DNA from: a virus
Taxonomy: Duplodnaviria > Heunggongvirae > Uroviricota > Caudoviricetes
IMG/VR virus record: IMGVR_UViG_2627853794_000002
Span: 1 to 40,524 of that record
Direction: 5' to 3' (one strand)
Length of the DNA stretch: 40,524 bases
Below the pieces are notes generated by a model that was not told the DNA's origin, did no database searches, and saw nothing but the letters and a program-made list of their open reading frames with translations. Both the position numbers and the translations under genes were made by a program. The first letter of the stretch is position 1. The number at the start of each line of letters is the position of its first letter. Positions 1 to 24,242 of this stretch are shown in pieces.

Positions 1-753
1 TCAGATTCCCTGGTGAGTAAGAATTTTACTTTCTGAACTCCTCTGAGAGTATTGACTTGGAGAAACACCAAAATAACGTCTAAATACATAAGTAAAGTAT
101 GAGACACTGGCATAACCACAGACCTTAGCTACTTTACTAATAGGATAACAACGAGTGCTGAGTAAATATTCAGCCATTTGCATCCTCTCATCAAGTATGA
201 TCTTACTGAATGATACCCCCTCTTCTTTCAATTTCCTCTTTAGTAAACTTTCGCTGAGATATAATCTTGATGATATATCCTTAAGACGCCATGGTGCAGA
301 TAAATCCGTATGAATAATCGTTTTAACTTTAGCCCCTGTGCTTTTCAAACATCCAAACAGAAATACTCCAAATTGTTTTTCAGAAGAAAATGCAGAGAGA
401 CATGTAAAAGCAATAGACTCATCAAAAATTTCTATGTATTCAGCACAGTGATTAGCCCAACTAATTAATCCTTTAATTAAACTGAAGTCAGCAAAGTTTA
501 TTTTTAAATAAGATGGATATTCCCTACAATCAGAAATATCCCTTAAGTTATTAGCTTTCAAATAGCGACTAATAAACTCAGCGCCAAAATCCGCCACTAT
601 CACTCTTTCAGGATATGTCAGGAAAAAATCTCTAGAGCTAGAGTCGACAAGTACAGATGAACCTCTCTCCAGAAACACACTCTCTTTTCCGAAATAAACA
701 TCAAAGGACTCCAAAATCAATATAACTGAACATGTAGTTGCCATATCATCCAC
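1..753 (-). CDS. AraC/XylS-family transcriptional regulator (GadX/AppY/Rns-like)
   Basis: 250-aa ORF; C-terminal AraC-type HTH signature (CGYASVSYFTYVFRRYFGVSPSQY); AT-rich relative to the phage backbone. Confidence 0.7.
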   Translation of the reverse strand: MDDMATTCSVILILESFDVYFGKESVFLERGSSVLVDSSSRDFFLTYPERVIVADFGAEFISRYLKANNLRDISDCREYPSYLKINFADFSLIKGLISWANHCAEYIEIFDESIAFTCLSAFSSEKQFGVFLFGCLKSTGAKVKTIIHTDLSAPWRLKDISSRLYLSESLLKRKLKEEGVSFSKIILDERMQMAEYLLSTRCYPISKVAKVCGYASVSYFTYVFRRYFGVSPSQYSQRSSESKILTHQGI

Positions 754-1326
754 CCAATTTAACTGAAACCAGGATGAAGTATATGTATATAAAGTTCACT
801 TTGCCAAACTTCAGTATAAAAAACCACTAAAAATAGGGTGTGATAAAAAATACCGTAACAATAAAGCAAAGGATTATAAATTCCGTTACAGTTACAAATG
901 ATACTCAAGAAACAATTCCTTAGGAAAAACTTATTTACAGCCAATAAGTAAGACACTTATATGATATCAAGTTTTCATAAAACATAACTAGGCTAAATAG
1001 CTGCGCCTAATACCGCTACACTTTTGCCAGCCCATGTTTGCCTCCGGGTATTGACCCCTTCTCTACGCAACTTCAGTTCCCACCACCAACTTTGCGGCAG
1101 CTTTGTAGGATCAATGTCTAAAAGAATAATGGTGACCGATAAGAAAACGACTGAATAACTGCAGATTTTCGCTCAAAACCTTCCTGTCAGATCCATAGCG
1201 AATCAAGTGCTGAATGTCACAGTATCGAACAGAAAACAGTGACGATCTAACCCTTCAAGAATATTCTACGATTGTTCTGTTTAGGAAAAGCAAGGCGGGA
1301 AGTCGGGAGATAAGTCATTGATAAAG

Positions 1327-1388
1327 TGGCGGAGAGAGGGGGATTTGAACCCCCGGTAGAGTTGCCCCTACTCCGGTTTTCGAGACCG
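1327..1388 (-). pseudogene. Truncated tRNA-Ser(CGA)-like gene, 3' ~62 nt only (acceptor 3' strand, T-arm, variable arm, part of anticodon arm)
   Basis: Minus strand reads ...GGTCTCGAAAACCGGAGTAGGGGCAACTCTACCGGGGGTTCAAATCCCCCTCTCTCCGCCA; matches 3' part of E. coli serU as recalled; no D-arm or 5' acceptor strand upstream. Confidence 0.6.
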
Positions 1389-1471
1389 ACCCGATCATCA
1401 AACGAAACATAAAATTAGCTCACATTATGAGGAAAGGTATCTTTTTGCGCTATGTAAATTCAAAGGGTTAG

Positions 1472-2341
<870 letters not shown>

Positions 2342-2361
2342 GTCTTTAAGTGATAAGCATA

Positions 2362-2398
2362 AACCGCAGCACGATCTTGCATACGACGTGCTACGGTT
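2362..2398. terminator. Hairpin between convergent GIY-YIG gene and pin (candidate bidirectional terminator)
   Basis: Inverted repeat aaccgcagcacg / cgtgctacggtt with ~13-nt loop, directly after both stop codons. Confidence 0.4.
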
Positions 2399-2953
2399 TC
2401 ATTTATCTCCGACCGAAAACTTCTTATACAGTGTCGATATACCAACATCATAGATGATCGCCACCTTCTGGCGAGGAACGCCTGATGCAATTAATCGCCC
2501 GGCCTGCGCCCATTGTTCTGGTGTAAGTTTGGGACGACGTCCACCAATTCGTCCCTGTGCGCGAGCAGCTTCCAGTCCAGCTTTTGTTCGTTCAACAATC
2601 AGTTCACGCTCCATTTCAGCCGGGGCACCCATGACATGAAAAAAGAAACGGCCCATTGGGGTGCTGGTATCAATACTGTCAGTCAGGCTTCGGAAATTCA
2701 CGCCACGCTGACGCAACTCTTCTATCAGCGTAACAAGATGCCGCATACTGCGCCCCAACCTGTCCAGCTTCCAGACAACCAGAGTGTCTCCTGCCGATAG
2801 TGTCCTGAGCAGCTTTTTCAGCCCCGGTCTGTCGGACTTTGTACCGCTTATCTTGTCTTCAAAAATCAGCTCGCATCCTGCACAGTTCAACGCATTACGT
2901 TGTAGATCGGTGTTCTGGTCATTTGTTGATACGCGAACATAGCCAATAAGCAT
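2399..2953 (-). CDS. pin: Serine-recombinase DNA invertase (Pin/Gin/Hin family)
   Basis: MLIGYVRVSTNDQNTDLQRNAL... resolvase catalytic domain plus C-terminal HTH; near-identical to e14 Pin as recalled; start taken at internal ATG 2953. Confidence 0.9.
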   Translation of the reverse strand: MLIGYVRVSTNDQNTDLQRNALNCAGCELIFEDKISGTKSDRPGLKKLLRTLSAGDTLVVWKLDRLGRSMRHLVTLIEELRQRGVNFRSLTDSIDTSTPMGRFFFHVMGAPAEMERELIVERTKAGLEAARAQGRIGGRRPKLTPEQWAQAGRLIASGVPRQKVAIIYDVGISTLYKKFSVGDK

Positions 2954-3021
2954 GATAGCTCCTCCTGACAAAAACAGGAACGATGCCATTTGCGCGCTAT
3001 TTCTGCATTTTCATAAACGTT

Positions 3022-3042
3022 GGTTTGGGAGAGGCGGCAAAA
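3022..3042. repeat. Invertase crossover site, left copy
   Basis: ggtttgggagaggcggcaaaa; inverted copy at 4573-4593 with 1 mismatch; encodes GLGEAAK in both tail-fibre reading frames. Confidence 0.6.
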
Positions 3043-3366
3043 ATGTCTGCCGCTGCACTTGTCATTAACGGTAATACGTTGACAGCAAAAATCCCGGTAG
3101 TTATTAACGGCGTTAACAGGGAGTTTATTATTCAGGCATCTCAGATATCCAGCTCAGCAAGCAATGGTGTTATTACCTTCCCATCCGCATTTCCAAATGC
3201 GTGTATTGCGATTTTTGCGCATGACTTTGCGACAGCGTCTACGGATTTATCGAATGTTCGGTTCTATATGCCAGGAAGAACATCAGCATCATGGACAGGG
3301 CAAAATATGAGTACAGGCAGTGAATCATCACCTGCAACATGGTGTTGGCTGGCAATTGGCTGGTAA
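3022..3366 (+). CDS. Alternative tail-fibre C-terminal cassette (silent in this orientation)
   Basis: ORF 2983-3366 shares GLGEAAK with the expressed fibre at the crossover site; no own start downstream of site; would fuse to fibre N-terminus after inversion. Confidence 0.55.
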   Translation, partial: GLGEAAKMSAAALVINGNTLTAKIPVVINGVNREFIIQASQISSSASNGVITFPSAFPNACIAIFAHDFATASTDLSNVRFYMPGRTSASWTGQNMSTGSESSPATWCWLAIGW

Positions 3367-3786
3367 ATGGAGAAAACAATGAAATATTTTACATCTGCTC
3401 CGATTGCTCTTTATAACTCCGATATATCCTCTTATATACCCGGTGACGCAGTAGAAATCAGTGATGAAGTATATGACGCACTTATTGCTGGTCAGGAGGC
3501 AGGAAAGAATATTACGGCAGACAGTAACGGACTGCCTGTACTGGCAGAACCCGCACAACCAACTCATGATGAATTGGTTGCAGCATCTGAATTAATGAAA
3601 CAGCATCTGATTGATGCTGCTATGGCTTCCATCAGTCTGATTCAGCTGAAATTGCAGGCCGGACGTAAATTGACGCAGGCAGAAACAACCCGGCTTAACG
3701 CTGTGCTGGATTACATTGACGCAGTGACGGCAACAGATACCAGCACCGCGCCGGATGTCATCTGGCCTGAACTGCCGGAGGCGTAG
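3367..3786 (+). CDS. Tail fibre assembly protein (alternate-orientation copy, Tfa family)
   Basis: 139 aa; C-terminal ...APDVIWPELPEA typical of Tfa chaperones; follows silent fibre cassette. Confidence 0.7.
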   Translation: MEKTMKYFTSAPIALYNSDISSYIPGDAVEISDEVYDALIAGQEAGKNITADSNGLPVLAEPAQPTHDELVAASELMKQHLIDAAMASISLIQLKLQAGRKLTQAETTRLNAVLDYIDAVTATDTSTAPDVIWPELPEA

Positions 3787-4210
3787 GCCATTCAATATCT
3801 GGCGCACTGGAGGTATCAACCAGCTCCAGTGCATCCAGATAATCCAGCCACAAATTATATTGCGCCAGTTCCTCACCTTTCAGACGACCAATAGCGGCTT
3901 TACCGGGCCATTGCTTACTGTTCATGTATTCGTTGGCCTGGTTAATTAGTAGCTGTCTTTCTGATTCAGTAATTTCAATAAGCTCTTCATGCGTGGGTGG
4001 AGGAATATCTGCCCACGCAGGCAGCCCATCATCTCCGGCAATACGGATTTTTCCTTGTGGCGGTTCAGCCATAAACTCACTGATAATATTTTGATTTACT
4101 TCCTTAGCGTCTGATAAATCCCATCCCTCTGATTTATATTTATCAATCATATCCACAGGGAAAAAAGCATTATGCCTTGCGCTATAAACATATTCGTTCA
4201 TATAAATCAC
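3758..4210 (-). CDS. Tail fibre assembly protein (expressed-orientation copy, Tfa family)
   Basis: 150 aa; ...APDIEWPTPPAVQAR; immediately downstream of tail fibre gene. Confidence 0.75.
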   Translation of the reverse strand: MIYMNEYVYSARHNAFFPVDMIDKYKSEGWDLSDAKEVNQNIISEFMAEPPQGKIRIAGDDGLPAWADIPPPTHEELIEITESERQLLINQANEYMNSKQWPGKAAIGRLKGEELAQYNLWLDYLDALELVDTSSAPDIEWPTPPAVQAR

Positions 4211-4221
4211 CCTGAATAAAA

Positions 4222-4884
4222 TTACTCACCAACAGCCCACCAACTGTAATTCATCGATACCGTGTCGCTGGTTGATGACGTTCTGTAAGCAGAATTAAAG
4301 CCGGTTAACGTTGGGCCTTCTGCAGTCATCACGAACCCTCGCCCAGCGCCTAAAGGCGCACCGCCATCACCAGAATGAGTAAGCATGGCGCAGTCCGCTT
4401 TTTTGGGGAAAGGGATGCTGAATGTAATTCTCATTGTTTGCGTCGATAATGTCGGCGTAACCGCACCACGACCATATTGCAGGATTTTCCCGTTGGGTAA
4501 TTTCATCCACCCATCACCACTGGCAAAAGAGGCCATGTCCGGTATCTGATTTTCCCCTGTCCCCACATCCCGTTTTGCCGCTTCTCCCAAACCAAGGTTT
4601 TCGAGAGCCGTTTTCACCGTGCCATCCGATTTGATATCGCCAAACGGATTCTTGCGGCTTAACAGCAGCGCACGAAGCGCGGTAAGCAGCTGGTCGTGCC
4701 GCGCCTTCTCAAGACTGGCACCGGATGCCTCAACAACGCTACAAAGTTCTTCCTGCAACATGTCAAAGTAGTCATCATCCAGATCGGTGGCAGGCGTGCC
4801 AGTCTGGGGGTTACCACGGGTAAAACCGTTTTTACCCGCGCCGAACTTATCCTTCTGCGCGGTTTTCGTGTCTATACGATGCAT
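4222..4884 (-). CDS. Tail fibre protein (constant N-terminus outside, variable C-terminus inside the invertible segment)
   Basis: 220 aa; crossover site falls at codons 98-104 (GLGEAAK); followed by Tfa gene. Confidence 0.75.
4573..4593. repeat. Invertase crossover site, right copy (inside tail fibre CDS)
   Basis: ttttgccgcttctcccaaacc = reverse complement of left copy with one mismatch. Confidence 0.6.
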
Positions 4885-4887
4885 GGA

Positions 4888-5472
4888 TTACTCCGGATAT
4901 TTAAAAATTACGTAGGTATGCGACGGGCAGAGTTTGTTAAGCACACACTCGACAACGGTGTCGCCCCAGATACGCAGTGCGGAATCACAGGGATCGCCAC
5001 ATGTCATCCAGGTGGTGTTGGTGGTGGCTGGCATGTTGACCTGCCAGTAATACCGCCATTCCGGCGCATTCACCGCGTCAGTACAGGCCGATGAGCAGGT
5101 GAACGTGCTTTTGTCGTATCGCGTGATGGTGGCATCTGGTCTGCCCAGGGCAGCAAGCTGTGCAAGATAAAAATCCTCGTTGATGCCGCCCGCCAGGTTA
5201 ACCTTCGCATCCAGCCGTTGCTGACGCTGGCGAAGGGTCTGCGTTCCCGCCGGAATACATTCATCCGGCAGACCGCACAGACGCTCCCAGCGGTTTATCA
5301 GTTCAGTGGTGGTGCGCGGATCCAGCTCCCGCATCAGGGCATCCGCACGCTGATGAACACGGGTTAATGACGGTGCCGCACCGGCAATCGCCGGATCGCT
5401 GGCTGACCACGCCGGACCGGGCGGCAACAGTGCCGATAACAGGCGGATGTAATCATCGTTTGTCACGTCCAT
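4888..5472 (-). CDS. Baseplate/tail protein (YmfQ-like, Mu gp48-like)
   Basis: 194 aa; position between baseplate J-like gene and tail fibre; resembles e14 YmfQ as recalled. Confidence 0.55.
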
Positions 5473-6521
5473 GAAATCGTCCCCAGTACCGCCAGTTCGT
5501 TTTTCGCAATGGAGATATTGTCCACCGGTGCAAGCAACTGATGGCTGTATTCCCCGTTCGCACCGGAAATCGCCTCACTGATACGCGATACCTTCAGTTC
5601 TCCCTGCGGATAACCATCACGCAGCAGGAACGAACGCAACTCCGCGGTAATGGCAGCCCGTATTTCCGGTGTGTCCGGCGTCACGCGGATATGAAAATCC
5701 ACCGTATGTGCCACCGGCCTGAATACATACAAATCAGAGCCTGCCACCGGGGCCAGTGGCCCGATATGTTGTCTTGCTGCCGTTTCCGTTGATTCTTCCG
5801 GAATGGGATTAATCAGGTCACTGCTGGCAATCATCACACCGACAGTTCCCGTTCCCATCCAGTGACGGTATGTCCATGCGCGGGTAATGCCGGGCACTTC
5901 TTTAGCCCAGACGACATAGTCCCCGTCAGCCCCGCCCTGAGGCGTCCAGTAATACCGCTCAATGACGCGGGCGCGCCACGTTTCCAGCTCTTCAGTATCA
6001 AATCCACCTGTCAGGGTATCTGCCACGCCGGAAGACGGCAGACCATTAACCGGCGTGACCAGGATTAATGACGTACCGTCGTCAGCGTTACCGACCGCGC
6101 CTGCACTTGAGCAGGCGATCGGCACGCGCAGGACACCACCGGAGCTGGTTGCATCGGCAGTTGCCGTGTACTGAACCAGGTCATCGCGCTGAATAACACT
6201 CCCGGCGGTCACCTTCAGGCCATCGCTGACACCTTCCCAGCGCATATACCCGCTGGCAGCCGTGGCCCCCTTGCGCGGACACCGTTTCATCGCAGCATGT
6301 CGCGCCAGCCAGGACGCATCGCACAGGTCAGGCAGCATGTTCATTGCCAGATAATCGATGTACCCGTAAACCGTATGCAGCGCCGCCGCATACACCTTTG
6401 CCCGCACGTCTTCATCCATGCGCCGGAGCGTGTCGCTGACGTCCAGCCTGGCGAATAAATCGTTACGGAGCATACTGATATTTTCTGCCAGCGTCGGGCG
6501 CTGAAATTCACTGTCCGCCAT
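5463..6521 (-). CDS. Baseplate J-like protein (Mu gp47-like)
   Basis: 352 aa; synteny within Mu-like baseplate module. Confidence 0.65.
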
Positions 6522-6936
6522 GCGTTATCGCACTCCACAGATCATCAAAAGAAATCATTACCGGTCCGTCACGACGCCAGAGGGTGATACTGTTACCCAG
6601 TTCATTAATCCCGGTGCGGCGGATATCCAGATCAATACGGGACACCACGCCGTCATCAATCATCCATTGCAGGCATTCGCGGATATACCCCCTTACCGTC
6701 TGCACCAGCTGATTGGTCAATTTGCTGCGCTGAAGCAGCCACAGTCGGGAGCCGTAACGGTCATTCTGTACCGCAGGCCAGGTATCCCCCCACCATCCCA
6801 TCGGGACGTCGGCGTTGTCATCAGGCTCCGCCCGCCGCCAGGTAAACAGGGAAATCACCACAGCGCGGGTCAGCGGATCCAGCGGTGCGCTGGCGCAGGT
6901 GCGTTTACCGTTCACCGTCAGCCACAGTTCCATCAT
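6508..6936 (-). CDS. Baseplate protein (Mu gp46-like)
   Basis: 142 aa; overlapping coupled ORF in baseplate operon. Confidence 0.5.
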   Translation of the reverse strand: MMELWLTVNGKRTCASAPLDPLTRAVVISLFTWRRAEPDDNADVPMGWWGDTWPAVQNDRYGSRLWLLQRSKLTNQLVQTVRGYIRECLQWMIDDGVVSRIDLDIRRTGINELGNSITLWRRDGPVMISFDDLWSAITHGGQ

Positions 6937-7481
6937 GCCTCCATCGCTTTATCAGGTTTGTCGGTGTTACTGCCCTGACCGTTCTCTCTGTGACGATGCC
7001 CGTTATAGGCAAGCCGCATCGCTGACATGGTGGTGCCGCCGGAGTCGCACAGGTCTTTCACCTGTCCTGTCACTTCCAGGTCCATTTCAAAACGTGCTTT
7101 AGGTGAATTGCGAAACGTGATCGTTTTACCTGCACCGTCCACCACGATCCCCTCCCGGGTCAGCGTCACGGACTGCCCCTGATCGTCATAGACAGCCACC
7201 TCACCCGTCTGCAGCCCTTTCAGGCGGTAGCGCCGGTCCGACACCGTAACAACCACCGCATGAGAACGGTCACCATCCGGAAACAACACCACCGCTTCCG
7301 CACCGCTGTTTGCCCTTGCGGTAAAACCGTAGGGTTCAAGATGTTCAACCCCGGCTTTGGGTTCACCGGCAATCAGGGACACATCCACGGTCTGACATTT
7401 CGTGGCGGCACTGATGCTTTTCACCACCGCCCGCCCAATCAGGCCGAAGAGTTGTCGCTGTATGGTTTCAATCGCCTTCAT
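6933..7481 (-). CDS. Baseplate assembly/spike protein (gpV / Mu gp45-like)
   Basis: 182 aa; synteny; translationally coupled to neighbours. Confidence 0.5.
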   Translation of the reverse strand: MKAIETIQRQLFGLIGRAVVKSISAATKCQTVDVSLIAGEPKAGVEHLEPYGFTARANSGAEAVVLFPDGDRSHAVVVTVSDRRYRLKGLQTGEVAVYDDQGQSVTLTREGIVVDGAGKTITFRNSPKARFEMDLEVTGQVKDLCDSGGTTMSAMRLAYNGHRHRENGQGSNTDKPDKAMEA

Positions 7482-8560
7482 CAGAACGGGTCCTCCTGTA
7501 CTCTGGCCTTTTTCTTTTTCCGCGCGCCGGGGGCTTCGGGTTCAGGCAGATAAGCATCAGGTGGGCCGACACGGATTTCCGTCAGGGTGCCGTTCTGGTC
7601 CTGAGTAAACGTGACTTCCGAGACAAGCAGTTCGGTATTGTCGAAACCACAGACCGGATCGAAGACAATCACCCGCTGGTTGGGCTGCCACAGCGTACCG
7701 TTACCCTGTCGCCAGCCCTGCACCACATAGGTGGTTTCATCCGTCCGCGCCGCCCGTTGTCGGGCTTCAAAGTCAGCACGCGCAATACAGCCTGCCCCCG
7801 TAGCCTGCCCTGTCTGCCTGATATACATCGGACGGTAACGGGCAATAAATGCGTCCTCTGTGCGGGCCCGCAGCGCGGTGGTGGTGGCCTCACCGAAATC
7901 ATCGTCGTTTCCGGCACGCTGCCCCGCCACCTGGTAAACTGAAAACCGCTCCCGGATACTCTTCTCCGTATCGCAGGAAAGGATGTTTTCCCCGAGTACC
8001 AGCGCGGTATGTGCCCGCGTTGAGCCAATACCGCCAATCACCAGCCTGCCGTGCGGGTCGTCGTAAGCCAGCGCCTGCTGCTGACCGAGTATTTTGTTGA
8101 TCACCTCGATCACCGTTTCACCGTGATCAGGCTGGACATCAGGAATAACACCCGACGGCGCACCACTGTTCACCACCTCAATGCCGAAAGGCGCAGCAAG
8201 CGCCTGCGCAATCTGTACCAGCGATCGTCCGTTAAACTGTGTCGGTTCGGCTGCACAGTCAATCAGGTCAGCGGTCAGACTACGTCCGGCAATACCGGTG
8301 CTGACCGAACGGGCATCGTAACGAACGGGCGTCGCCTCCACCCAGCCGGTGATCACCAGCTCATCACCAATCAGCACCTCCACTTTTGAACCGTTTTTAA
8401 TGCGCGGCTGAAGCGTGGTGATACCCTCATCACCCGGCCACTGGCGGGTGATCTCCACACTGAAATCCCGCGCCAGCCGTTCAATACCGGCACCGATGCG
8501 CACCGATGTCCAGCCATTCCACTCCCGGCCATTTACCCGTAGCGTGACATTGTCGTTCAT
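7481..8560 (-). CDS. Baseplate hub protein (Mu P / gp44-like)
   Basis: 359 aa; synteny after DNA circulation-like gene. Confidence 0.55.
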   Translation of the reverse strand: MNDNVTLRVNGREWNGWTSVRIGAGIERLARDFSVEITRQWPGDEGITTLQPRIKNGSKVEVLIGDELVITGWVEATPVRYDARSVSTGIAGRSLTADLIDCAAEPTQFNGRSLVQIAQALAAPFGIEVVNSGAPSGVIPDVQPDHGETVIEVINKILGQQQALAYDDPHGRLVIGGIGSTRAHTALVLGENILSCDTEKSIRERFSVYQVAGQRAGNDDDFGEATTTALRARTEDAFIARYRPMYIRQTGQATGAGCIARADFEARQRAARTDETTYVVQGWRQGNGTLWQPNQRVIVFDPVCGFDNTELLVSEVTFTQDQNGTLTEIRVGPPDAYLPEPEAPGARKKKKARVQEDPF

Positions 8561-9927
8561 TGCACTGGCACCTTCAGAGGGATCACCGGCACAAAGCCGG
8601 GATGCGTAATGGCATTACGCCGAATAATGTCCGCGTCACGCGCCGCGTTATCAAACCAGGTCGCCGCCAGCACCAGCGCGGGTAAAACCTCATCCGGTGT
8701 GCGCTGAATGATCCGTGCAGACTGTTCAAGGCGCGTGTTGATATCCGCATTCAGATCTGCTTTCACCCGGCGCAGCGCCAGAAACAGCGCATCACTGGTT
8801 GTACGGGACAACTCCTTATCAATTGCCGTATTCAGTGTGTCGCGAATGTCAGTCAGTTCTTCCCACGTCGGCAGGTCAACTGTGTTTTTCACCGCCGGTG
8901 CATTGTTCAGTGCCGGATGCGTGACGGAAGGCCAGCCGGTGCTCTGCGCAGCTGTTGTTGCCTGCCCCACTGCGGCATTCTGCATCACCGCGGAAGTTGT
9001 TGGCGCAGGCAATCGGGTGACGGCATACGCCGCTTCGCTGATTGCGGTCGTACGAAGGGTGCTGGCAACCACGTTACGCTGCTGCGTCGCCGTAGCGGTG
9101 GTTTTACTGTCCGTTTTCCAGACGCCGCGCGGTTGCAGATCGCTGCCGAGGCTGACACCGGAAAGCGTTTTGATCATGGTGACCAGGTCGCTGGCGTTAC
9201 CATAAAGGCGTTTCCCGGTACGCCACATTTTCTGCACCTGCTCAACGAAATTTTTGCCTGACGATGGCGGCGGCAGAAGTACCGAGATATCCCCCTGCAA
9301 CAGCCTGGCGGCATCCGATACGGCAGAATCCACCACTTTCATCGCATCAGAAACATACCCAAGCATTATGCTGGCATTACCGATAACGTCGTTCTGCACG
9401 AAATCCGCCACGCCATCGATACTGAAACCTCTGAAGCTGTCACTGATGCAGTCATCCAGTGCAGAACAGGATGACATCAGCGTCTGCGCCGTCGCCGCAC
9501 CTGAAGTGGGGTAAGAGAGTTCTCCCGCTTCGACAAACTTCAGGTCAAAGCGGACAATACGCCCTTCACTCTTCGATGTGCTGACCCGAACTTCTCCGTC
9601 AACACAGACTTTCAGCTCACCGTATGTCGGATGGACAAGCGTGCCGGGACCGGGTTTATTCAGCGCGTCAATCAGGCGATCGCGCTGGTCAAAGCAGTCA
9701 TCTCCCACCACATAAGCCGTGATGGACGGGCGGAAAGTGATTTTCCCCAGGTCTTCGGTATAGGGTTTGTCGCGGTTCGGGTATTCGTGCGTTTCCACAC
9801 GACGACCGGTTCCCGTACTTTCTTCTTCAACCTTAAAAGGCACACCGCGAAATGACGCGTCCTGAAGTCTGTCTTTCCACGTCATATAAACTCCGTACAT
9901 AAAAAATCCCACCGGAGTGGGACTCAT
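8557..9927 (-). CDS. DNA circulation protein-like tail protein (Mu N / gp43-like)
   Basis: 456 aa; follows tape measure gene as in Mu-like tail modules. Confidence 0.55.
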   Translation of the reverse strand: MSPTPVGFFMYGVYMTWKDRLQDASFRGVPFKVEEESTGTGRRVETHEYPNRDKPYTEDLGKITFRPSITAYVVGDDCFDQRDRLIDALNKPGPGTLVHPTYGELKVCVDGEVRVSTSKSEGRIVRFDLKFVEAGELSYPTSGAATAQTLMSSCSALDDCISDSFRGFSIDGVADFVQNDVIGNASIMLGYVSDAMKVVDSAVSDAARLLQGDISVLLPPPSSGKNFVEQVQKMWRTGKRLYGNASDLVTMIKTLSGVSLGSDLQPRGVWKTDSKTTATATQQRNVVASTLRTTAISEAAYAVTRLPAPTTSAVMQNAAVGQATTAAQSTGWPSVTHPALNNAPAVKNTVDLPTWEELTDIRDTLNTAIDKELSRTTSDALFLALRRVKADLNADINTRLEQSARIIQRTPDEVLPALVLAATWFDNAARDADIIRRNAITHPGFVPVIPLKVPVQ

Positions 9928-9945
9928 TAACAGATTAATTTTTCA

Positions 9946-11781
9946 TTACCTGCCAAAGCGCGTATAGCCAACATCATGGCTGACATCAAAACCGCTGGAT
10001 CGCGTTTCCATAACCCGCATACCCGGAGGCGAATTCACAAAAGAGACCTTGATCTCACCATCAACTTTTGGCGCAGAAGCTTTGTTAATCATGAAGGGAT
10101 TCGGGCCTGTGGCACCGGAGGCGTTGTTTGACTGAGCCAGATCTACCGCCGGATAAGGTGTGTATCCCCGTGCCGGTATTCCCGTCCCATAAGCATCATA
10201 AGCACCCGCGCCCCACTGCGCAGAGTTAATGGCATCGACCGTGTCACCGGAACTGTCGGTAAACCACTCAATAATTGGCTTCAGCTTATCCCACATATCC
10301 TGAAACCACTTAACAACCGGTCCCCAGTTATTGATCACCATCTCCAGCGGCGACCAGGCAAAAACCTTCTTCAGAAGTTCCCAGCCAGCCTCAAAATAAG
10401 GACCAATGGTTTCCCAGAGTTTCTTAAAATAAGGTCCGACAACATCCCAGTTAGTGATAATTAATCCCGCAGCCAGGGCTATCGCCGTCGCAATCATGCC
10501 AATCGGCGTCATCGACATGATCCTGCTGACAATACTGATGGCACCGCCCACGCCCATCAATCCCAGCTTCAGAATCGCAAGACCGGCAGCAAGCCCGACG
10601 ACGCCGCGAATAACCCGGGGATTTTCATCCGCAAACTTCGTGAATTTCTCCCCCAACTCCCCCAGCCACTGCGTGATATTTTTGGCGTCACCAGAAAATG
10701 CGCCGCCAATAGCTGCAAGACCGTTAGTTGCGGTCCCCGTCATTGCCTCCCACAGGTTGGACAGCGTACCAAGCTGAGCCTGAACACGTTTATTCAGGCT
10801 GGCCTGTTTATTCATCTTCTGCTGGATCTGATCGTAGCCATCCTTTCCTTTATCGATTAGTGCATTGACCACCTGAAGGGTTTCGGCATCATCACCAAAT
10901 ATTGCCTTAAGTACGCCTGTTCGCTTAACGTCGGTCAGTTTTCGCAGCTTTGCCAGTTGCCTGAACATGTTATCAAGACCGCCAAAACTCCCTTTGCCGT
11001 CAGTAAAATCGAGCTGTACCCCGAGTTTCTGGCGGGCCATGATTTTATTGACGTCCCTGATTTTCTTAACGCTTAATCCGGACTGGATAACTTTTCGCAG
11101 GGCGTTACCTGCCGACTCCCCGTTCATCCCCATCTGATCCATCATGACGCTGATGGGGGCAAGGCTCTGTGCAGCCTGAAGACCGTCCTTGTTCACCATC
11201 TTCAGAACAGAACTGGTTTTAGTGAAGAAGGACAACATGTTGGTATCGTCAACGCCCAGATAAAACGCCTTCTGGATAGTGTCGAACAGCCCCATCATGT
11301 CTTCTGACGCCGTTCCGGTAGCATCCTGCATCTTTGCAGCAAACTCAGCAGCCGCTTCCGGTGTTTTTTTCAGTTGTACCGCAAGATAAGCTGTCGCTTT
11401 ACCCACACCACCCAGAATGTTTTCTGCCGGGATCCCCTGACGCACCAGCATCTGCATCATGTTCTGGAAATCAGCCGTTGTACCGGGTAGCTGGTTACCC
11501 AGGCCAATAGCCAGTTTATTGATGTCCTGAAAGCTCTTTCCAACCTCGCCGTTCGCATCCATCATGGCGACTTTCAGCCCGGTAGCGGCGTTTTCCTGAT
11601 CGGCATAAGATTTCAGGGAAAGCGTCAGCCCCGCTGCCAGTCCTCCACCAAGCGCCAGCCCACCCTGTGACGCTTCTTCCGCCTGGCGTTTAAATCCCCG
11701 GATTTTCTTTTGCATTTTCGACAGCGCGGGAGAAAGCCTGTCGACACCGGTGATCAACGCCTTAAGCTCAAATTCAGCCAT
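9946..11781 (-). CDS. Tail tape measure protein
   Basis: 611 aa; Ala/Gly-rich helical protein with hydrophobic segment near C-terminus; immediately downstream of chaperone frameshift pair. Confidence 0.8.
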   Translation of the reverse strand: MAEFELKALITGVDRLSPALSKMQKKIRGFKRQAEEASQGGLALGGGLAAGLTLSLKSYADQENAATGLKVAMMDANGEVGKSFQDINKLAIGLGNQLPGTTADFQNMMQMLVRQGIPAENILGGVGKATAYLAVQLKKTPEAAAEFAAKMQDATGTASEDMMGLFDTIQKAFYLGVDDTNMLSFFTKTSSVLKMVNKDGLQAAQSLAPISVMMDQMGMNGESAGNALRKVIQSGLSVKKIRDVNKIMARQKLGVQLDFTDGKGSFGGLDNMFRQLAKLRKLTDVKRTGVLKAIFGDDAETLQVVNALIDKGKDGYDQIQQKMNKQASLNKRVQAQLGTLSNLWEAMTGTATNGLAAIGGAFSGDAKNITQWLGELGEKFTKFADENPRVIRGVVGLAAGLAILKLGLMGVGGAISIVSRIMSMTPIGMIATAIALAAGLIITNWDVVGPYFKKLWETIGPYFEAGWELLKKVFAWSPLEMVINNWGPVVKWFQDMWDKLKPIIEWFTDSSGDTVDAINSAQWGAGAYDAYGTGIPARGYTPYPAVDLAQSNNASGATGPNPFMINKASAPKVDGEIKVSFVNSPPGMRVMETRSSGFDVSHDVGYTRFGR

Positions 11782-11956
11782 GTGTGCGTTTCTCCTGCTC
11801 TATCCTGTTTGCCTGACTGACCAGCAAGGGAATTTCACTGATCGGCATATTCAGCAATTCGAAGGGATTAATGCGCCAGTAGCTGGCGCAGTCAAAGAAG
11901 CGATCAGTGAGGTATTCAGCCGTCAGGCCTGGAGGAAAAAACCAGCCACAAGCCAC
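11774..11956 (-). CDS. -1 frame extension of tail assembly chaperone (frameshift product)
   Basis: Overlaps 3' end of 11923-12192 ORF in -1 frame; slippery heptamer at overlap; ends 7 nt before tape measure start. Confidence 0.45.
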   Translation of the reverse strand: MACGWFFPPGLTAEYLTDRFFDCASYWRINPFELLNMPISEIPLLVSQANRIEQEKRTHG

Positions 11957-12192
11957 GCCGCTGCATTCAGGTCTGCCGGAGACATCTGGTCGACAGAGCT
12001 TTGCGGCACTTTCGCCAGCCGCACAATGTATTTCGACACCACATGCGCCAGAAGTCTGACGGACTCATCCTGATTCATCTGGTAGGGATACCCCAGCTCG
12101 CGGACATCTTTCCCGGTGGGCTCATCAAACTCCAGTACGGAGAGTGTCTCGCCATGAGCGGTAATCGGTTTCTTTAACTCAAGCTCTTTCAT
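11923..12192 (-). CDS. Tail assembly chaperone (P2 gpE / Mu gp41-like)
   Basis: 89 aa ORF between tail tube and tape measure genes. Confidence 0.6.
   Translation of the reverse strand: MKELELKKPITAHGETLSVLEFDEPTGKDVRELGYPYQMNQDESVRLLAHVVSKYIVRLAKVPQSSVDQMSPADLNAAAWLVAGFFLQA
11935..11941 (-). other. Candidate -1 programmed ribosomal frameshift site T_TTT_TTC
   Basis: Minus-strand heptamer in zero frame (ggT TTT TTC) within the 34-nt overlap of the two chaperone ORFs. Confidence 0.45.
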
Positions 12193-12548
12193 TACTGGTA
12201 ATCCCCTTCTTCACCGTGGAACTCAAGATCGACCGTGCCTTCTTCGGCATTATGGTTCGCTTCGCCGTGCAGCCAGGCAGACGACAGTACATAGACCTGA
12301 CCGTTCGCCAGCTCGGCAGTGATGGTCATCTCATCAGACGAGGTGATTTTGCTCACCGGAAAATTCTTCGGCACCTTGAAGGTCCCTTTGACATAAGGCG
12401 CACGGTGAGTTTCCTTGCGGTCCACTGAACCGTCCAGGCCGATGATGTCATCATTGACCGTCCTGTTCATGGGCACCTCAATGCCGCCGGTCAGCGATAG
12501 CTGCTGACCGTCAATTTTGAAATAACAGGTTCCCCCGATACGGGCCAT
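12192..12548 (-). CDS. Tail tube protein (Mu M / gp40-like)
   Basis: 118 aa; directly downstream of sheath gene. Confidence 0.7.
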   Translation of the reverse strand: MARIGGTCYFKIDGQQLSLTGGIEVPMNRTVNDDIIGLDGSVDRKETHRAPYVKGTFKVPKNFPVSKITSSDEMTITAELANGQVYVLSSAWLHGEANHNAEEGTVDLEFHGEEGDYQ

Positions 12549-14044
12549 TATGCGGACTCCTCTGAATACTGAAGACGGAACTGGTTAACCACGGCAAAGA
12601 CACGCAACTGGTTAACATAGTCAGGCGGGAACAGCGTGTTCAGGCGGTTCGGATCGCTGGCATCACGCTCCACAACCAGGTACTGCTTAAACAGTGCGTA
12701 GTTTTCCACGATCCCCGCACGCTCAAGCTGACGGTAGGTTGCCAGCAGTTCCCCTTTGATCACCGCCGGGGTGACAATCGCCTGACCGGGACCAAAGCGG
12801 GTACCGTCACTGGCAAGCTTGTGACGCCCGTACTTACTGGTAATGACGGATTTCAGTTTGCGCAGTACATACGCGCTGGTATGCAGAGTCTCGCTGTCGA
12901 GGTAGCTGTTATCCGCAACCCCGTAAGCGTTTTTCCTGTACGTGGTGACATCACGCTGAATGCGCAGTACCCCGCTTTCGACATACGCCGTTGCCACGCC
13001 ATGAGACAGCAGGGTCTGTTGTTCGGTCATCGTGAACCGTTTCCCCTTCGGCGCAGGCAGCATACCCACCAGCTCACCGGTCTGCGTGGGACGTGCCGGA
13101 TCGTTGCGAATAAACACCGCTGCGCGGGCGGTACGGCTTGCCGCCAGTTCGTCGGCAGGCGTCTGGGTCTCTTTTTCGTACCCCGCCAGGGTAATGTGCT
13201 GCTGGTTAAACTGGTCACCTGCGGTCACCAGTTCTGACAGCGTGCCGATCTTTGCCGTATACACATGACCATACAGCTGACGCGCATAGCTCCAGCGACC
13301 GCTGGTATCGTTCATCTCGGTCACCAGCGTGTTAACGGAGGCCGTGTCGTTGAACGGCAGGCCGATATAATCAAACGGCTCATCCGCCATTGCAGCCACC
13401 GCGCCGGTGAGAACCGGAGCACCCGTTCCGGCGGTACCCGTCGCCACGGCAATCTGTACGCCCGCTGGCAGCACTTCGCCCCCACCAAAGCCGTAGTAAT
13501 TGAGGCTGACAGGAATTTCATTCCCGCAAAGCCCCTTATGACGCGCGGTCAGTGTGACCACGCCTGCCGAAGATGAAGCCGTAAACGGCAGGGCCGGAAC
13601 GGCATTGATGGCATCCTGGATACTGCTGGCAATCGTCGTGACGTTATCGCCGTTGGTCACCGGAGCCTGCACGCGGGTACGTCCCACATAGACATTCACC
13701 GTGCCGGTTTCGGTTGCCGCCCCGGTCACCGTCAGCGTAACCGTTGCCGCCGCGCCCGTGGATTCAGGAACGGCAATCACATACAGCTCACCAAACGGGT
13801 CGGTCTGGCGATAAGCCTCGACCATACGCGCCAGCTGACTTCCCGCACCACAAATCTGGCGTGCATAGTCTGCCGACGGCATCAGTACCAGACTGTTGGC
13901 AACAATCTCTGCACCGTTATTGGCATGACCAATCAGCAGCGATGCTCCGCTGTCCTGTGCAGTATTCGCCGCCTGGTTATCCATTTCCGCATAAAACAAC
14001 GGAACCAGCGTATTCGACGGAATGGTGTTAAAGCTTATCGTCAT
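12548..14044 (-). CDS. Contractile tail sheath protein (Mu L / gp39-like)
   Basis: 498 aa; sheath-tube-chaperone-tape measure gene order. Confidence 0.8.
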   Translation of the reverse strand: MTISFNTIPSNTLVPLFYAEMDNQAANTAQDSGASLLIGHANNGAEIVANSLVLMPSADYARQICGAGSQLARMVEAYRQTDPFGELYVIAVPESTGAAATVTLTVTGAATETGTVNVYVGRTRVQAPVTNGDNVTTIASSIQDAINAVPALPFTASSSAGVVTLTARHKGLCGNEIPVSLNYYGFGGGEVLPAGVQIAVATGTAGTGAPVLTGAVAAMADEPFDYIGLPFNDTASVNTLVTEMNDTSGRWSYARQLYGHVYTAKIGTLSELVTAGDQFNQQHITLAGYEKETQTPADELAASRTARAAVFIRNDPARPTQTGELVGMLPAPKGKRFTMTEQQTLLSHGVATAYVESGVLRIQRDVTTYRKNAYGVADNSYLDSETLHTSAYVLRKLKSVITSKYGRHKLASDGTRFGPGQAIVTPAVIKGELLATYRQLERAGIVENYALFKQYLVVERDASDPNRLNTLFPPDYVNQLRVFAVVNQFRLQYSEESA

Positions 14045-14198
14045 CGGTATTCACCTTTTTATTCACGCGCCGGATATCACCCGCTGCTTCACGGCGCAGC
14101 CAGTAGTTGTTCTCGTCAACATTTCGCCCTTCGGCGGGCAAAAGGTCGCCGCGGGCAGGGTCAGGAACTGACCGCCCTTTAACAGGTTTCACAAACAT
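14028..14198 (-). CDS. Small hypothetical protein preceding sheath gene (Mu gp38-like position)
   Basis: 56-codon ORF MFVKPVKGRSVPD... not in ORF track (below length cutoff); overlaps sheath start. Confidence 0.3.
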   Translation of the reverse strand: MFVKPVKGRSVPDPARGDLLPAEGRNVDENNYWLRREAAGDIRRVNKKVNTDDDKL

Positions 14199-14206
14199 GA
14201 AGATTC

Positions 14207-14767
14207 TCAGGAAGGAAGGGTTATTTCGGTGTGATGTTCGATATCGCCGTCAGGCCCGTTACCGGGATCGAGATAATCAACATCAATCGCCAGCGTTTGC
14301 AGTTCATCCAGACTGTTCAGATCATCCTGCTGGCGGGTATCGTCTTCGGTCAGCTCGCTGATGACCGAAAAATCGAACTGATAAATCAGCTCATGACGAT
14401 TCAGATCCAGCAGCGTGCCGCCGTCATAGGTAATCGGGTTACCGCACGCCTCCGGGTTCCAGCCCAGCAGAGCCTTAAAGAGCATCTGCCGGACATCGTC
14501 CACCACATCATACGAGGCAAACTGACCGCGCTCATCACGCCCGTTACTCAGTATGACAACCACGGAGAAACCCTCTTTCAGCTCCTGCCAGTAGTCGGTC
14601 TGGCTTTTGTTTTCTCCCGGAGAATCATCACCCGGTACAACATATGCTGCCGGGAGTTTCAGCTTTCCGACCTCCGGCAGATTTTTGAACTGGGCCGCGC
14701 CTGCAACCCGGTTTTCAAAATACGGACAGCGGGCACGCAGTGCAGCAATAACAGGCATCAGTTTCAT
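14207..14767 (-). CDS. Tail-associated protein (tail completion/terminator candidate)
   Basis: 186 aa; position between head-tail joining genes and sheath. Confidence 0.4.
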   Translation of the reverse strand: MKLMPVIAALRARCPYFENRVAGAAQFKNLPEVGKLKLPAAYVVPGDDSPGENKSQTDYWQELKEGFSVVVILSNGRDERGQFASYDVVDDVRQMLFKALLGWNPEACGNPITYDGGTLLDLNRHELIYQFDFSVISELTEDDTRQQDDLNSLDELQTLAIDVDYLDPGNGPDGDIEHHTEITLPS

Positions 14768-15270
14768 CTGTGTCGTCGCTCCGGCTTCAGTGATTTACGC
14801 AATTCCCGCGCCAGAAAATAGCGTGTCCAGCTGCGGTTCTTTTCAAGAGTTTCCACCATGAAGTTATTACGTGGAGCCAGTCGCCAGCCGCTGCCACCGG
14901 ATGCACCACGATGATGGCTGCGACGACGCTTTGCCCCGCGCCTCACGCCATAGAACAAAAAAGCCGGATAAAAATCACCGGTGATACGGCGGTTTCCCTC
15001 TCCATTACGCTGGTTAGGGGCTATACGTGCCATAAAACCAGGGCGATGTTTACTGGCTCTGGGTACCATGTAACCAATCGAACGAGCCAGGCGTCCGGTC
15101 TGATAACCGGGGTTTTCACCCGGTGCCGACCGCGCACGGCGCATCACCAGCCGACGGGCATCACGCATATGACGCTGACCAATCGTGACAAACGCCCGCC
15201 GGACACGGGCGCGGTTAAAGCGCATCTCCGCGGGCTGCTGAAAATCAACGTGCAAAAAGGAAGTCGTCAT
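14764..15270 (-). CDS. Virion morphogenesis / head-tail joining protein
   Basis: 168 aa basic protein; synteny. Confidence 0.4.
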   Translation of the reverse strand: MTTSFLHVDFQQPAEMRFNRARVRRAFVTIGQRHMRDARRLVMRRARSAPGENPGYQTGRLARSIGYMVPRASKHRPGFMARIAPNQRNGEGNRRITGDFYPAFLFYGVRRGAKRRRSHHRGASGGSGWRLAPRNNFMVETLEKNRSWTRYFLARELRKSLKPERRHR

Positions 15271-15655
15271 TGTTGCCTCCGTGACTCTGCCTACATTCGC
15301 CCAGCTCCGTACACTCCAGCAGCAGAAAGCGCCGCGCCCCGTTCAGATCGCGCTGACGTTTCACCCGGTACACACTGTCACCGCAGACCACCTCATAATC
15401 AGCGGTGATCCCCCGGCGGTAACGAATGGTGATGTAATGGGTGATGGCGTCCCCGGTCTGCGCGGTTTCCTGCCAGGTGGTGGCACTGGTCTGGACAACC
15501 TTCGCCCATGTCCGGAACGCAACCGGGTATTGAGGCTCCACGCCAAAGTTATCCGCGGGCATATCCACCCGCAGGCGGATCAGGACGCGTTTATTCAGTT
15601 CACCGGGGTCCGGCAGAATGTAGGTTGCGCTGGTCTGCGCCTGACGAATTTTCAT
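15245..15655 (-). CDS. Head-tail adaptor / head closure protein
   Basis: 136 aa; synteny downstream of connector-like gene. Confidence 0.4.
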   Translation of the reverse strand: MKIRQAQTSATYILPDPGELNKRVLIRLRVDMPADNFGVEPQYPVAFRTWAKVVQTSATTWQETAQTGDAITHYITIRYRRGITADYEVVCGDSVYRVKRQRDLNGARRFLLLECTELGECRQSHGGNNDDFLFAR

Positions 15656-15975
15656 TGCGGGAAATACCTGTACGGGCCGACAAGCCAGTTAAAGCTCATT
15701 GGCAACTCCATTTTCTCAACGTCTGTAACCGACGAGCGATTTTCGTAAAAATGGCTGATAAGCATCAGCATCCCCAGACGAATATCATCCGGCAGGTGCA
15801 GCCCGTCCGGATCGCTGTCCGGAATGGATTCATCCGGTGCATAGAGCTTCCGGTTCAGATACGTTTCCGTCCGCTTTTGCGCCGCACAGGCCAGCAGTTG
15901 CAGATGGCGGTCATCAGCATCGAAATCCTCATCCAGCCGGAGTTGGGCTTTAATCTCTTCCATTGTCAGAAGCAT
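15652..15975 (-). CDS. Head-tail connector protein (gp6-like)
   Basis: 107 aa; MLLTMEEIKAQLRLDEDF... typical of gp6-like connector family; follows capsid gene. Confidence 0.5.
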   Translation of the reverse strand: MLLTMEEIKAQLRLDEDFDADDRHLQLLACAAQKRTETYLNRKLYAPDESIPDSDPDGLHLPDDIRLGMLMLISHFYENRSSVTDVEKMELPMSFNWLVGPYRYFPQ

Positions 15976-15977
15976 AC

Positions 15978-16178
15978 TCAGCTCTCTTTACTGGTCGTGG
16001 CTTTTTTCTCTTTTGCCGCTTTACTGCTTTTTGCACTGGTTCCGCGCTCAGCTAACCCGGCCTGAAGTGCAATCTCCTGCACCCGGGCAGGAAGCGCCCC
16101 GTCGTCATACTCACCGGCCCGAATGACTTCAACACGCATACCGTCCGGTGACCATTTCAGATCTTGTTTCAGGATCAT
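15978..16178 (-). CDS. Small hypothetical head-region protein
   Basis: 66 aa, Lys/Ala-rich tail; between capsid and connector genes. Confidence 0.3.
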   Translation of the reverse strand: MILKQDLKWSPDGMRVEVIRAGEYDDGALPARVQEIALQAGLAERGTSAKSSKAAKEKKATTSKES

Positions 16179-16227
16179 GATTCTTCACCCGTCAGAACAG
16201 GGGGCGCGGTTCCGCGCCCCTGAATGA

Positions 16228-17433
16228 TTACGCCGCTGCAATCTTCAGCAGTTTGATGGCCTGCGAATCGACCAGCATCCCGCCGGTGCGCTTGGTGGTA
16301 TAAAAACCGACAAACGGTTTATTGGTGTACGGGTCACGCAGAATGCGGGTGCCGATACGGTCAACGATGGTGTAACCCCGTTTGAAGTTACCAAATGCAA
16401 TGGCTTTCGCATCAGCGGCGATATCCGGCATCTGTTCGTTTTCAGCGATAGCGTAACCCGCCAGAGAGGACGGCTGCCCCAGCTCCAGCCCCGGACGCCA
16501 CAGATAGTTACCCTCACTGTCTTTCAGCAGACGGATGGCAAACAGACTGTTGTTGTTCATCATGAACTTCGCGCCAGTGCGGTGTGCCTTACGCAGCGTG
16601 TAAATCAGTTTGATAATGGCATCTGCGGTCACCGCCGTCGCTTCGCCGGATACAATATGCTGAAGTTTGCCGAACGCCCGGACCTTGTCTGTTTCATCCG
16701 TGGACTCATACGCCAGGAACCCTTTCGGCTTCTTGGTACCATCGCCGGTGGTAAAGGCAATTTCTTCCTGTTCGGCAAATTCGGTTGCCAGCTCGCTGTT
16801 GATCCATGCTTCCACGTTGAAAAAGGCATCATCCAGCATTTTCTGGGTGGCCTGCGGGTTACCGTAGATTTCCCCCATGAAAGGTTCAATCAGGCCCAGT
16901 TTTGAGGTGGCAGTCTGGGAGCGCGCGTCAGTCTCGCCAACCCATCCGGAAGCCGTGCCGCCCAGATTCACCAGTTTTTTGTAGTCGGAACCACCAACGC
17001 TGATCACCGTGGCTTCCTGGCGCATCACCACTTCATCTTTCAGCAGGGTGAGAATGTTGCGATCCAGTGCTTCCGGCACGGCATAGCCGCCGTCTTCATC
17101 GGTGCCCACCTGTAATGCCTTGCGCTCCAGATCGCGCAGACCATCTTCACGGCCTTTACGCAGGAAGCCCACAAACGCTTCTTTATGCTCGGTGGCCAGT
17201 TTATTTTGCGCACCACCTGCCGGACGTTTCAGCTCAAGCAGCTCTTTTTCAAGATCGCTTTTGAGGTTTTCCAGCTCGCTGAGTTTCCCGTTCAGGGTTT
17301 CCACCTGCCCGGCAAGTTTGCCTTTTTCCTGCTCAATCGCATCCACGCGCTTGTCGTTCTTTGCTTTGAAGTCGTCAAACTTCTGCTGCAGCTCCTGCGC
17401 GACCTGTTCGACATCTTTAATATCAACCGCCAT
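16228..17433 (-). CDS. Major capsid protein (HK97 fold) with N-terminal coiled-coil delta domain
   Basis: 401 aa; coiled-coil N-terminus then capsid core; follows prohead protease. Confidence 0.85.
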   Translation of the reverse strand: MAVDIKDVEQVAQELQQKFDDFKAKNDKRVDAIEQEKGKLAGQVETLNGKLSELENLKSDLEKELLELKRPAGGAQNKLATEHKEAFVGFLRKGREDGLRDLERKALQVGTDEDGGYAVPEALDRNILTLLKDEVVMRQEATVISVGGSDYKKLVNLGGTASGWVGETDARSQTATSKLGLIEPFMGEIYGNPQATQKMLDDAFFNVEAWINSELATEFAEQEEIAFTTGDGTKKPKGFLAYESTDETDKVRAFGKLQHIVSGEATAVTADAIIKLIYTLRKAHRTGAKFMMNNNSLFAIRLLKDSEGNYLWRPGLELGQPSSLAGYAIAENEQMPDIAADAKAIAFGNFKRGYTIVDRIGTRILRDPYTNKPFVGFYTTKRTGGMLVDSQAIKLLKIAAA

Positions 17434-17447
17434 CGTATTTCTCCTGA

Positions 17448-19317: not shown

Positions 19318-19499
19318 TATTTACCTCCGCCGACAGACGGCTGTGTTCGGTCGAGATATCGCGCCACCAGCCACGACCAGAACAGGCACAGCACCCCGGC
19401 AACAACAAAACCCGCCGGGGGATAAATCAGCCAGGCACCATACGCCAGCAAAAGCGCACCCAGCACGCCCACCAGTGGCGCGAGAATTATCAGAAACAT
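19317..19499 (-). CDS. Small hydrophobic protein (two predicted TM helices)
   Basis: 60 aa [45 protein letters not shown]...; between terminase large subunit and portal. Confidence 0.3.
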
Positions 19500-19510
19500 A
19501 ATGACCTCGG

Positions 19511-24161: not shown

Positions 24162-24167
24162 TCTAAC

Positions 24168-24242
<75 letters not shown>

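Follow-up and report, generated by a model that had tools for sequence, protein, structure and literature searches.

The fragment at 1327-1388 of the window (the whole 40,524-nt stretch of viral DNA analysed here) is best read, with a probability of roughly 0.8, as a fossil attR site, left by an old integration into the tRNA gene serU and carried afterwards as phage cargo into prophages that occupy other attachment sites, and not as the border of an island at this locus. The window holds a Mu-tail (SfV-like) prophage of roughly 40 kb, with thrW as its integration site. The intact tRNA-Thr(CGU) gene thrW (39081-39156, minus strand; called by ARAGORN and Rfam) forms its proximal attachment site (attL), and a tyrosine integrase gene (37903-39066, plus strand; Pfam Phage_integrase) abuts thrW, in the same position relative to it as in strain CH458, which is 97% identical to the window over 1-19529. 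Across 5,426 complete RefSeq E. coli genomes, the best coverage of the window's first 25 kb was 76%, and positions 800-1600, which include the fragment, were 99.9% identical to O157:H7 strains. The prophage of the window is full-length, but O157 has in its place just a 10.5-kb remnant, Sp1.

On the minus strand, 1327-1388 reads CGGTCTCGAAAACCGGAGTAGGGGCAACTCTACCGGGGGTTCAAATCCCCCTCTCTCCGCCA and matches nucleotides 29-90 of the 90-nt serU tRNA-Ser(CGA) gene of E. coli at 62/62 positions. This identity, together with a pseudo-tRNA-Ser annotation in the prophage SerU-LTIIb, defines the stretch as the tRNA-derived core of the junction. Thousands of complete genomes, K-12 MG1655 among them, have the serU reference sequence at 100% identity under a tRNA-Ser annotation, and a full-length copy was present in 5,419 of the 5,426 genomes; in about 1,266 genomes a serU copy was 95-99% identical to the K-12 sequence. 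What remains in the fragment is the anticodon arm, short of one base at its start, together with the variable and T arms, the 3' acceptor strand, and an encoded CCA. The 5' half of serU is missing, with neither a D arm nor an acceptor 5' strand, and the DNA upstream of 1388 is phage, resembling the tRNA only in 7 of the next 9 bases. The initial annotation had described a 3' tRNA-Ser(CGA) fragment of about 62 nt that begins at the anticodon arm, encodes CCA, lacks a 5' half, lies in the same orientation as thrW, and has a low-GC AraC-type gene beyond it, and every part of that description was borne out.

The similarity to the serU locus extends past the tRNA. An ordinary att direct repeat ends where the tRNA-identical core ends; here, the adjoining 278 nt (1049-1326, minus strand) are captured host DNA, placed by K-12 alignment in the native intergenic flank directly 3' of serU towards yodB, and in about 5,400 E. 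coli genomes the DNA directly downstream of the intact gene shows ~97% identity to them. The native flank nearest to the captured one is that of strain SCU-301, at 99.3%. Window positions 1388-1049 are thus collinear and gapless with K-12 serU nucleotides 29-90 followed by 278 nt of the serU-yodB intergenic region, with 331/340 positions identical. A chance match is excluded by the perfect identity of the core and by this longer match once the adjoining native flank is counted, and because host chromosome is carried beyond the core, the 340 nt together with the arm from 1389 onward, which leads into a GIY-YIG gene, have the form of a complete attR junction.

The captured flank breaks off at 1048/1049, where the last 55 nt of an IS630-family element follow (994-1048), consisting of the 3' end of the transposase gene and 22 nt past its stop codon. 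The true terminus of this scrap lies at ~994, towards the AraC gene, and its cut at 1048 is internal. The break falls within the IS630 sequence, which makes 1048/1049 a deletion scar instead of an insertion site, and the DNA formerly between the serU flank and the IS630 element has been lost. A TA dinucleotide at the break was considered as an IS630 insertion site and rejected on the same grounds. Further on lies a region of low GC content (29%) upstream of the AraC gene (745-993, minus strand), delimited by its composition and contained within a 1,869-nt block common to phage ev099. The AraC-family regulator gene itself (1-744, minus strand; 247 aa, 35% GC; Pfam HTH_AraC and HTH_18) is annotated as AraC family in EDL933, Sakai (ECs_0287), and ev099 (gp29), and it is also carried by the phages mEp332 and PhiR70_1. 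Judged by gene order only, it is probably patE (z0321) of O157: Z0314 and Z0316 are tail-fibre genes of CP-933H, and ECs_0287 lies seven genes past ECs_0280. In EDL933, patE encodes a prophage-encoded AraC-like activator of acid-resistance genes that also represses some LEE genes (reviewed in PMC10877973). A scan of 700-1650 for promoters and terminators returned nothing beyond the expectation from shuffled sequence.

On the phage side of the core, the P arm of the serU-type attR (1389-1567, minus strand) leads into a LEM-3-like GIY-YIG gene (1568-2341, plus strand; Pfam PF22945), with which the gene order ends on the right side of the phage. The arm is near-identical to that of an attR found in place at serU in strain MB15, where a GIY-YIG gene likewise adjoins attR. 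Genes of this type are the last before attR in Mu-tail prophages at serU and at thrW, and were found in about 850 of the 5,426 E. coli genomes. The neighbouring gene encodes a pin-type serine DNA invertase of the tail-fibre switch (2399-2953, minus strand; Pfam Resolvase and HTH_7; pinE in relatives). It stands beside oppositely oriented tail-fibre and tail-fibre-assembly ORFs, an arrangement that suggests an invertible host-range segment at 2399-4210, and it is in this invertase and tail-fibre region that the window diverges from the MB15 phage (3043-4580).

Junctions of the same form were found in place at serU. A chimeric query that joined the GIY-YIG arm of the window to the core and the 278-nt flank, and then to more K-12 sequence reaching into yodB, was covered to 100% in strains MB15 and RMDEC332. 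In MB15, intact serU is followed by three small genes and a tyrosine integrase; next come a complete Mu-tail (SfV-like) prophage and pinE, and then the GIY-YIG gene and the serU core, beyond which lies yodB. Its attL/attR repeat measures 68 nt (GGAC + 62 nt + CT), of which 66 nt are identical to the tRNA, and its attR differs from the window junction at 4 of about 200 aligned positions. The late genes of the window prophage also match those of the MB15 serU phage (1049-3042 at 95.5%, 4581-9873 at 98.3%, and 12155-19528 at 94.7%), while the early region and the integrase are not in common. In the SerU-LTIIb prophage (KU052038.1, 9169-9230), a 62-nt pseudo-tRNA-Ser is annotated between side-tail-fibre genes and yodB, and at the distal end of Sakai Sp14 a 61-nt serU core adjoins yodB. 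A cluster of phage-borne tRNA genes within the window prophage (24168-24477, minus strand) comprises Gly(UCC), Thr(UGU), Lys(UUU), and Met(CAU), and the SerU-LTIIb record has tRNA pairs with 95% identity to its Thr and Gly part (about 24166-24326).

The flank runs on into yodB at MB15, RMDEC332, SerU-LTIIb, and Sakai Sp14 only. Strains Q5, GF130, and PM4 were considered as cases of a longer captured flank at thrW and set aside: Q5, the one inspected, proved to be the true serU locus with a deletion reaching yodB. Altogether, four different phage arms (window/MB15, ev099/mEp332, SerU-LTIIb, and Sakai Sp14) join the core at most 1 nt from one position, as expected of a site-specific junction. 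With its arm, core, and flank all collinear with an in-place serU junction, the composite in the window has the P-O-B' order of an attR made by a serU-integrating phage and is the genuine scar of an element that targeted serU.

The Sakai locus also indicates where strand exchange takes place. The working serU gene on the attL side of Sp14 (locus L012, 12172-12261) carries A48G and T59C, a compensated variable-arm pair relative to K-12, while the Sp14 attR copy (locus L013, 3645-3705) has retained the K-12-type bases at nucleotides 48 and 59. Sequence 3' of the crossover derives from the phage in attL and from the host in attR. The A48G/T59C pair in Sakai serU was brought by prophage Sp14, and its presence in attL together with host bases in attR places the serU-type crossover 5' of nucleotide 48, within the anticodon arm. 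The window fragment has host-type bases at 48 and 59, consistent with the 3' part of its core being continuous with the host flank. The accessory region beside the Sp14 serU attR holds the effector genes espJ and tccP (L013, 4211-6202), a map position that corresponds to that of the AraC block in thrW and att-lambda phages.

The junction and its cargo are found in phage genomes. PhiR70_1, ev099, and mEp332 match window positions 1-1389 at about 99%, with the match stopping exactly at the 5' edge of the core, and in all three the core, flank, and AraC gene lie between a tail-fibre assembly gene and int. The full order in ev099 and mEp332 is tail-fibre assembly gene, AT-rich arm, core, 278-nt flank, IS630 scrap, AraC gene, IS scraps, a gap, int, and xis, which puts the block at the position of lambda's b region. 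The block common to EDL933 and ev099 measures 1,869 nt (99% identity), runs from the core edge to the truncated end of an IS3 scrap, and comprises the core, flank, IS630 scrap, AraC gene, and IS3 scrap; mEp332 and PhiR70_1 carry this block at 99% as well. No thrW core was found in ev099, mEp332, or PhiR70_1. The int-side arm of ev099-type phages matches lysogens only up to a point about 70 nt short of int, and an ev099-type prophage in strain 214-4 adjoins ybhB-bioA, the classical lambda site. Strain E8 has the block after a lambda-type siphovirus prophage located at thrW.

In place of the window's P arm, ev099 and mEp332 carry a different, AT-rich arm joined to the core at the same nucleotide. 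It matches the attR arm of SerU-LTIIb at 95.4% over 456 nt, core and flank included, and is itself a genuine serU-phage arm. The captured flanks of the window and ev099 have 7 SNPs in common relative to K-12, LT-IIb, and MB15, and an identical breakpoint. These 7 common SNPs and the one common deletion scar indicate a single capture event, followed by exchange of the arm and the int module. The block was present in 33 IMG/VR contigs and in about 535 of the 5,426 complete E. coli genomes, where it came with the GIY-YIG arm in 412; the arm was readable in 19 IMG/VR contigs, as GIY-YIG in 12 and AT-rich in 7. The flank/IS630 junction had no match among GTDB species representatives. Copies of the block are decaying, with a G-to-C change at core position 2 in mEp332 and a mutated anticodon loop in one IMG/VR contig.

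The comparisons above establish what the piece is and that it carries captured host flank, that it lies within att-bounded prophages of relatives and in phage genomes, and that it has a single origin. According to the route proposed here, a temperate phage would have integrated into serU and created a junction of phage arm, 62-68 nt of serU core, and downstream host DNA. This junction and its 278 nt of host flank would then have become part of a phage genome, lodged in the accessory region that separates the tail-fibre end from attP; I infer, as the simplest means of capture, an imprecise lambda-bio-type excision from serU that took attR and adjacent DNA along. Fusion of the junction to the IS630 scrap, the low-GC AraC gene, and the IS3 scrap would have produced the 1.87-kb block, and IS activity, deletion, and modular recombination would have added a thrW-type or lambda-type int/attP as well as either of the two serU-phage arms. 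The block would finally have moved by modular recombination among temperate phages of other specificity, reaching thrW in the present case and att-lambda in the ev099 type. Excision of the lambda-bio type would be expected to cost the phage some genes at its other end, and the int modules now beside the block have specificities other than serU. Since neither the AraC gene nor the IS scraps are serU-locus DNA, additional events must be assumed. A donor-like state, that is, intact native serU followed by the flank, IS630 scrap, and AraC gene, occurred in 0 of the 5,426 genomes, so that no capture intermediate survives among them.

A serious rival, although an unlikely one, accepts the same identity for the fragment and has the block assembled in the chromosome through recombination of a serU prophage with a related prophage at thrW or att-lambda. 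The recombination would be homologous or IS-mediated (a double crossover, gene conversion, or an inversion followed by re-inversion), would require no imprecise excision, and would deliver the block to circulating phages only afterwards. This would suit the mosaic build of the window prophage, whose late region matches a serU phage and whose integrase matches thrW phages, as well as the IS scraps (IS630 and IS3) at both non-tRNA ends of the block. O157 moreover holds Sp1 at thrW and Sp14 at serU simultaneously, and experiments have shown new phages arising by recombination among the prophages resident in O157 (PMC2669165). However, the flank is just 278 nt long and the chromosome past the prophage is collinear (the pao genes in CH458), so this route would require no fewer than two exchanges at exact positions. 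The 1048/1049 break also lies inside the IS630 scrap and not at an IS end, which marks it as a deletion scar and not as a crossover in IS homology, and the reciprocal or intermediate product was found in no genome. Capture by a phage excising from serU is retained as the simplest origin.

More doubtful is the proposal of residual activity, in which serU-type integrases would use the relic as a secondary attachment site within prophages. Phages with serU specificity would insert into thrW or att-lambda prophages and swap modules there, and the 340-nt homology would also promote exchange with native serU. Strand exchange maps 5' of tRNA nucleotide 48, in the anticodon arm that the fragment has kept, and one captured block carries, joined at the same nucleotide, either of two genuine serU-phage arms. 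A suitable enzyme may be at hand as well: Sakai Sp14 has an intact integrase and formed circles after mitomycin C treatment, and it coexists with the relic in this strain (PMC2669165). Homologous recombination anywhere in the 340 nt of core and flank would, however, explain the arm swaps equally well. Neither a tandem intermediate (AT-rich arm, core, MB15-type int arm) nor a native serU 5' half joined to the captured block was present in any of the 5,426 genomes (0/5,426 for each), and some copies of the block have mutations in the anticodon arm. If the proposal were true, the relic would be a portable secondary attachment site at which an Sp14-type integrase in an O157 cell could exchange modules across site specificities, the presence of two unrelated serU-phage arms on a single block would be explained, and the relic could seed large thrW-serU inversions, as the two copies are mutually inverted in Sakai.

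The initial annotation had placed the fragment outside the prophage, as the in-place distal repeat of a second island that targets a tRNA-Ser gene, and this is very improbable. A second thrW copy of at least 12 nt was absent from the window, and the distal prophage end thus lies beyond it. In CH458, thrW (locus L009, 44925-45000) and a 46-nt thrW 3' repeat (4949-4994) enclose the serU core (7075-7136), which lies 2.1 kb inside the distal repeat, and the core chromosome (the pao genes) resumes past that repeat. The last 46 nt of thrW recur as the distal repeat in EDL933 and E8 too, with the same adjoining phage arm and likewise about 2.1 kb beyond the fragment, and the three relatives carry three different sequences after it. 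The Sp1 feature of Sakai (300042-310627), which extends from inside thrW to the repeat, spans the GIY-YIG gene, the serU piece, the AraC gene, and the IS3 scrap, a partial ISEc48. By comparison with these relatives, 97-99.9% identical over the region, the fragment can be placed inside the thrW prophage, although the window ends before the repeat; from the three relatives, the window's own distal repeat should lie about 0.76-0.80 kb to the left of position 1. The current Sakai annotation lacks locus tag ECs_0286 at the relic (locus L011, Sakai 308278-309100), and the tRNA-Ser fragment is unannotated in the RefSeq records of both Sakai and EDL933.

The second-island reading draws on the form of the fragment, which is that of a 3' tRNA direct repeat, and on the P4-like Sp2 integrase that lies 2.3 kb further on in O157. 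That integrase is directly preceded by the thrW repeat and not by a serU repeat, CH458 has the fragment without any second element, and the fragment sits between thrW and its repeat as part of a block that is also found in phage genomes. An island attR in its original place would combine the tRNA 3' identity seen here (62/62) with an intact cognate tRNA gene and integrase at the element's other end and native chromosome beyond the repeat, but the native sequence gives out after 278 nt and is followed by the IS630 scrap and the AraC gene. The direct repeat expected near the fragment did not materialise: no intact or second serU copy, no serU 5' half, and no serU-type integrase was found in the window or in 40 kb of EDL933. 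The intact gene that had been proposed as a check was located, in O157 Sakai about 2.4 Mb from the relic, where it is occupied by prophage Sp14. The placements of Sp1 and Sp2 at thrW and of Sp14 at serU have been reported previously (PMC8190617). What survives of the earlier proposal is the tRNA-Ser-targeting element, as the scar is a genuine serU junction, while the island border at this locus falls away. Its other suggestion, a rearrangement joining two islands, came closer and is incomplete, in that the block is portable and 99% identical in phages that use another attachment site. The sequences after the distal thrW repeat are P4-like Sp2/CP-933I in EDL933 (locus L001, 17058-18447) and another satellite in E8 (locus L003, 17062-18487), each with its own integrase, and CH458 has none. 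The arrangement at thrW is a tandem array, in which the attR repeat of one element serves as the attL of the next.

The weakest reading, that of a degraded or unusual yet functional tRNA gene or of a chance resemblance, can practically be dismissed, since a permissive Rfam scan gave no more than a sub-threshold tRNA-Sec-like alignment over 1338-1408 (27.5 bits against a cut-off of 47), the acceptor 5' strand and D arm are missing, the RNA fold is no stabler than that of shuffled sequence (z = -0.32), and the 62/62 identity with its contiguous flank excludes chance. ARAGORN and Rfam at its gathering threshold called 5 tRNAs in the window and none at 1327-1388, so a re-reading of the letters yielded no intact tRNA and the call of a fragment stands; with an incomplete cloverleaf and negative tRNA finders, it is not a working tRNA-Ser. 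A match of RF04351 (Plastid-psbl-rps4 3' UTR) to the antisense of the fragment (1330-1381, plus strand; E = 1.8e-7, 40.9 bits, cut-off 68) was set aside as below the gathering score and antisense to tRNA-Ser-like sequence, and it probably arises because this plastid family overlaps a tRNA-Ser-like sequence.

The overall importance of the relic is modest. It is a caution for island calling, where 3' tRNA fragments are commonly taken to delimit an element that has integrated at the tRNA in question; here such a fragment, left out of the EDL933 and Sakai RefSeq annotations, is a transplanted scar within a prophage of different specificity. It is also a natural record of how a phage/host junction and some host DNA became part of phage genomes and reached roughly one in ten complete E. 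coli genomes, on phages with Mu-type and lambda-type tails and at both thrW and att-lambda. Through its linkage to the probable patE gene, it helps to trace the source and movement of an AraC cargo module.

Several known systems offer a comparison. Phage attP sites may carry the 3' end of their target gene, as in P22 and SfV at thrW or e14 and phage 21 at icd. The relic resembles these in that phage DNA carries a copy of the 3' portion of a gene from the host. A working attP, however, consists of a core, a P' arm, and a cognate int, and in the relic the core is followed by host flank and the nearest integrases are of the thrW type or the lambda type, directed to another site. The fragment ptwF is a 3' pseudo-fragment of thrW at the distal end of the K-12 prophage CP4-6. 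Both ptwF and the relic are 3' tRNA fragments of the kind left as a direct repeat by a tRNA-targeting element, and they lie in the same chromosomal region. Unlike the relic, ptwF has its matching tRNA gene at the opposite end of the same element and is a true border, and its counterpart here is the 46-nt thrW repeat beyond the AraC gene and not the serU piece.

The closest likeness in form is to the in-place serU attR sites of SerU-LTIIb, Sp14, and MB15, with which the relic shares 61-62 nt of serU, the boundary with the phage arm, and a host flank towards yodB. Those sites lie at serU, with intact serU and the cognate integrase at the opposite end and a flank that continues into yodB, whereas the flank of the relic stops after 278 nt and its junction lies inside a thrW prophage. 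Specialised transducing phages of the lambda bio and gal type are formed by imprecise excision. As in those phages, host DNA adjoins the att core on one side within the att-proximal accessory region, and the attR-type (P-O-B') site has been retained. The relic differs from them in being natural and widespread (about 10% of complete E. coli genomes), in carrying only 278 nt and no host gene, and in being attached to int/att modules of other specificities, with an origin by excision that is proposed as the simplest route. The relic is thus a variant of known phenomena: a transplanted attR scar with its host flank, carried in prophages of other specificity.
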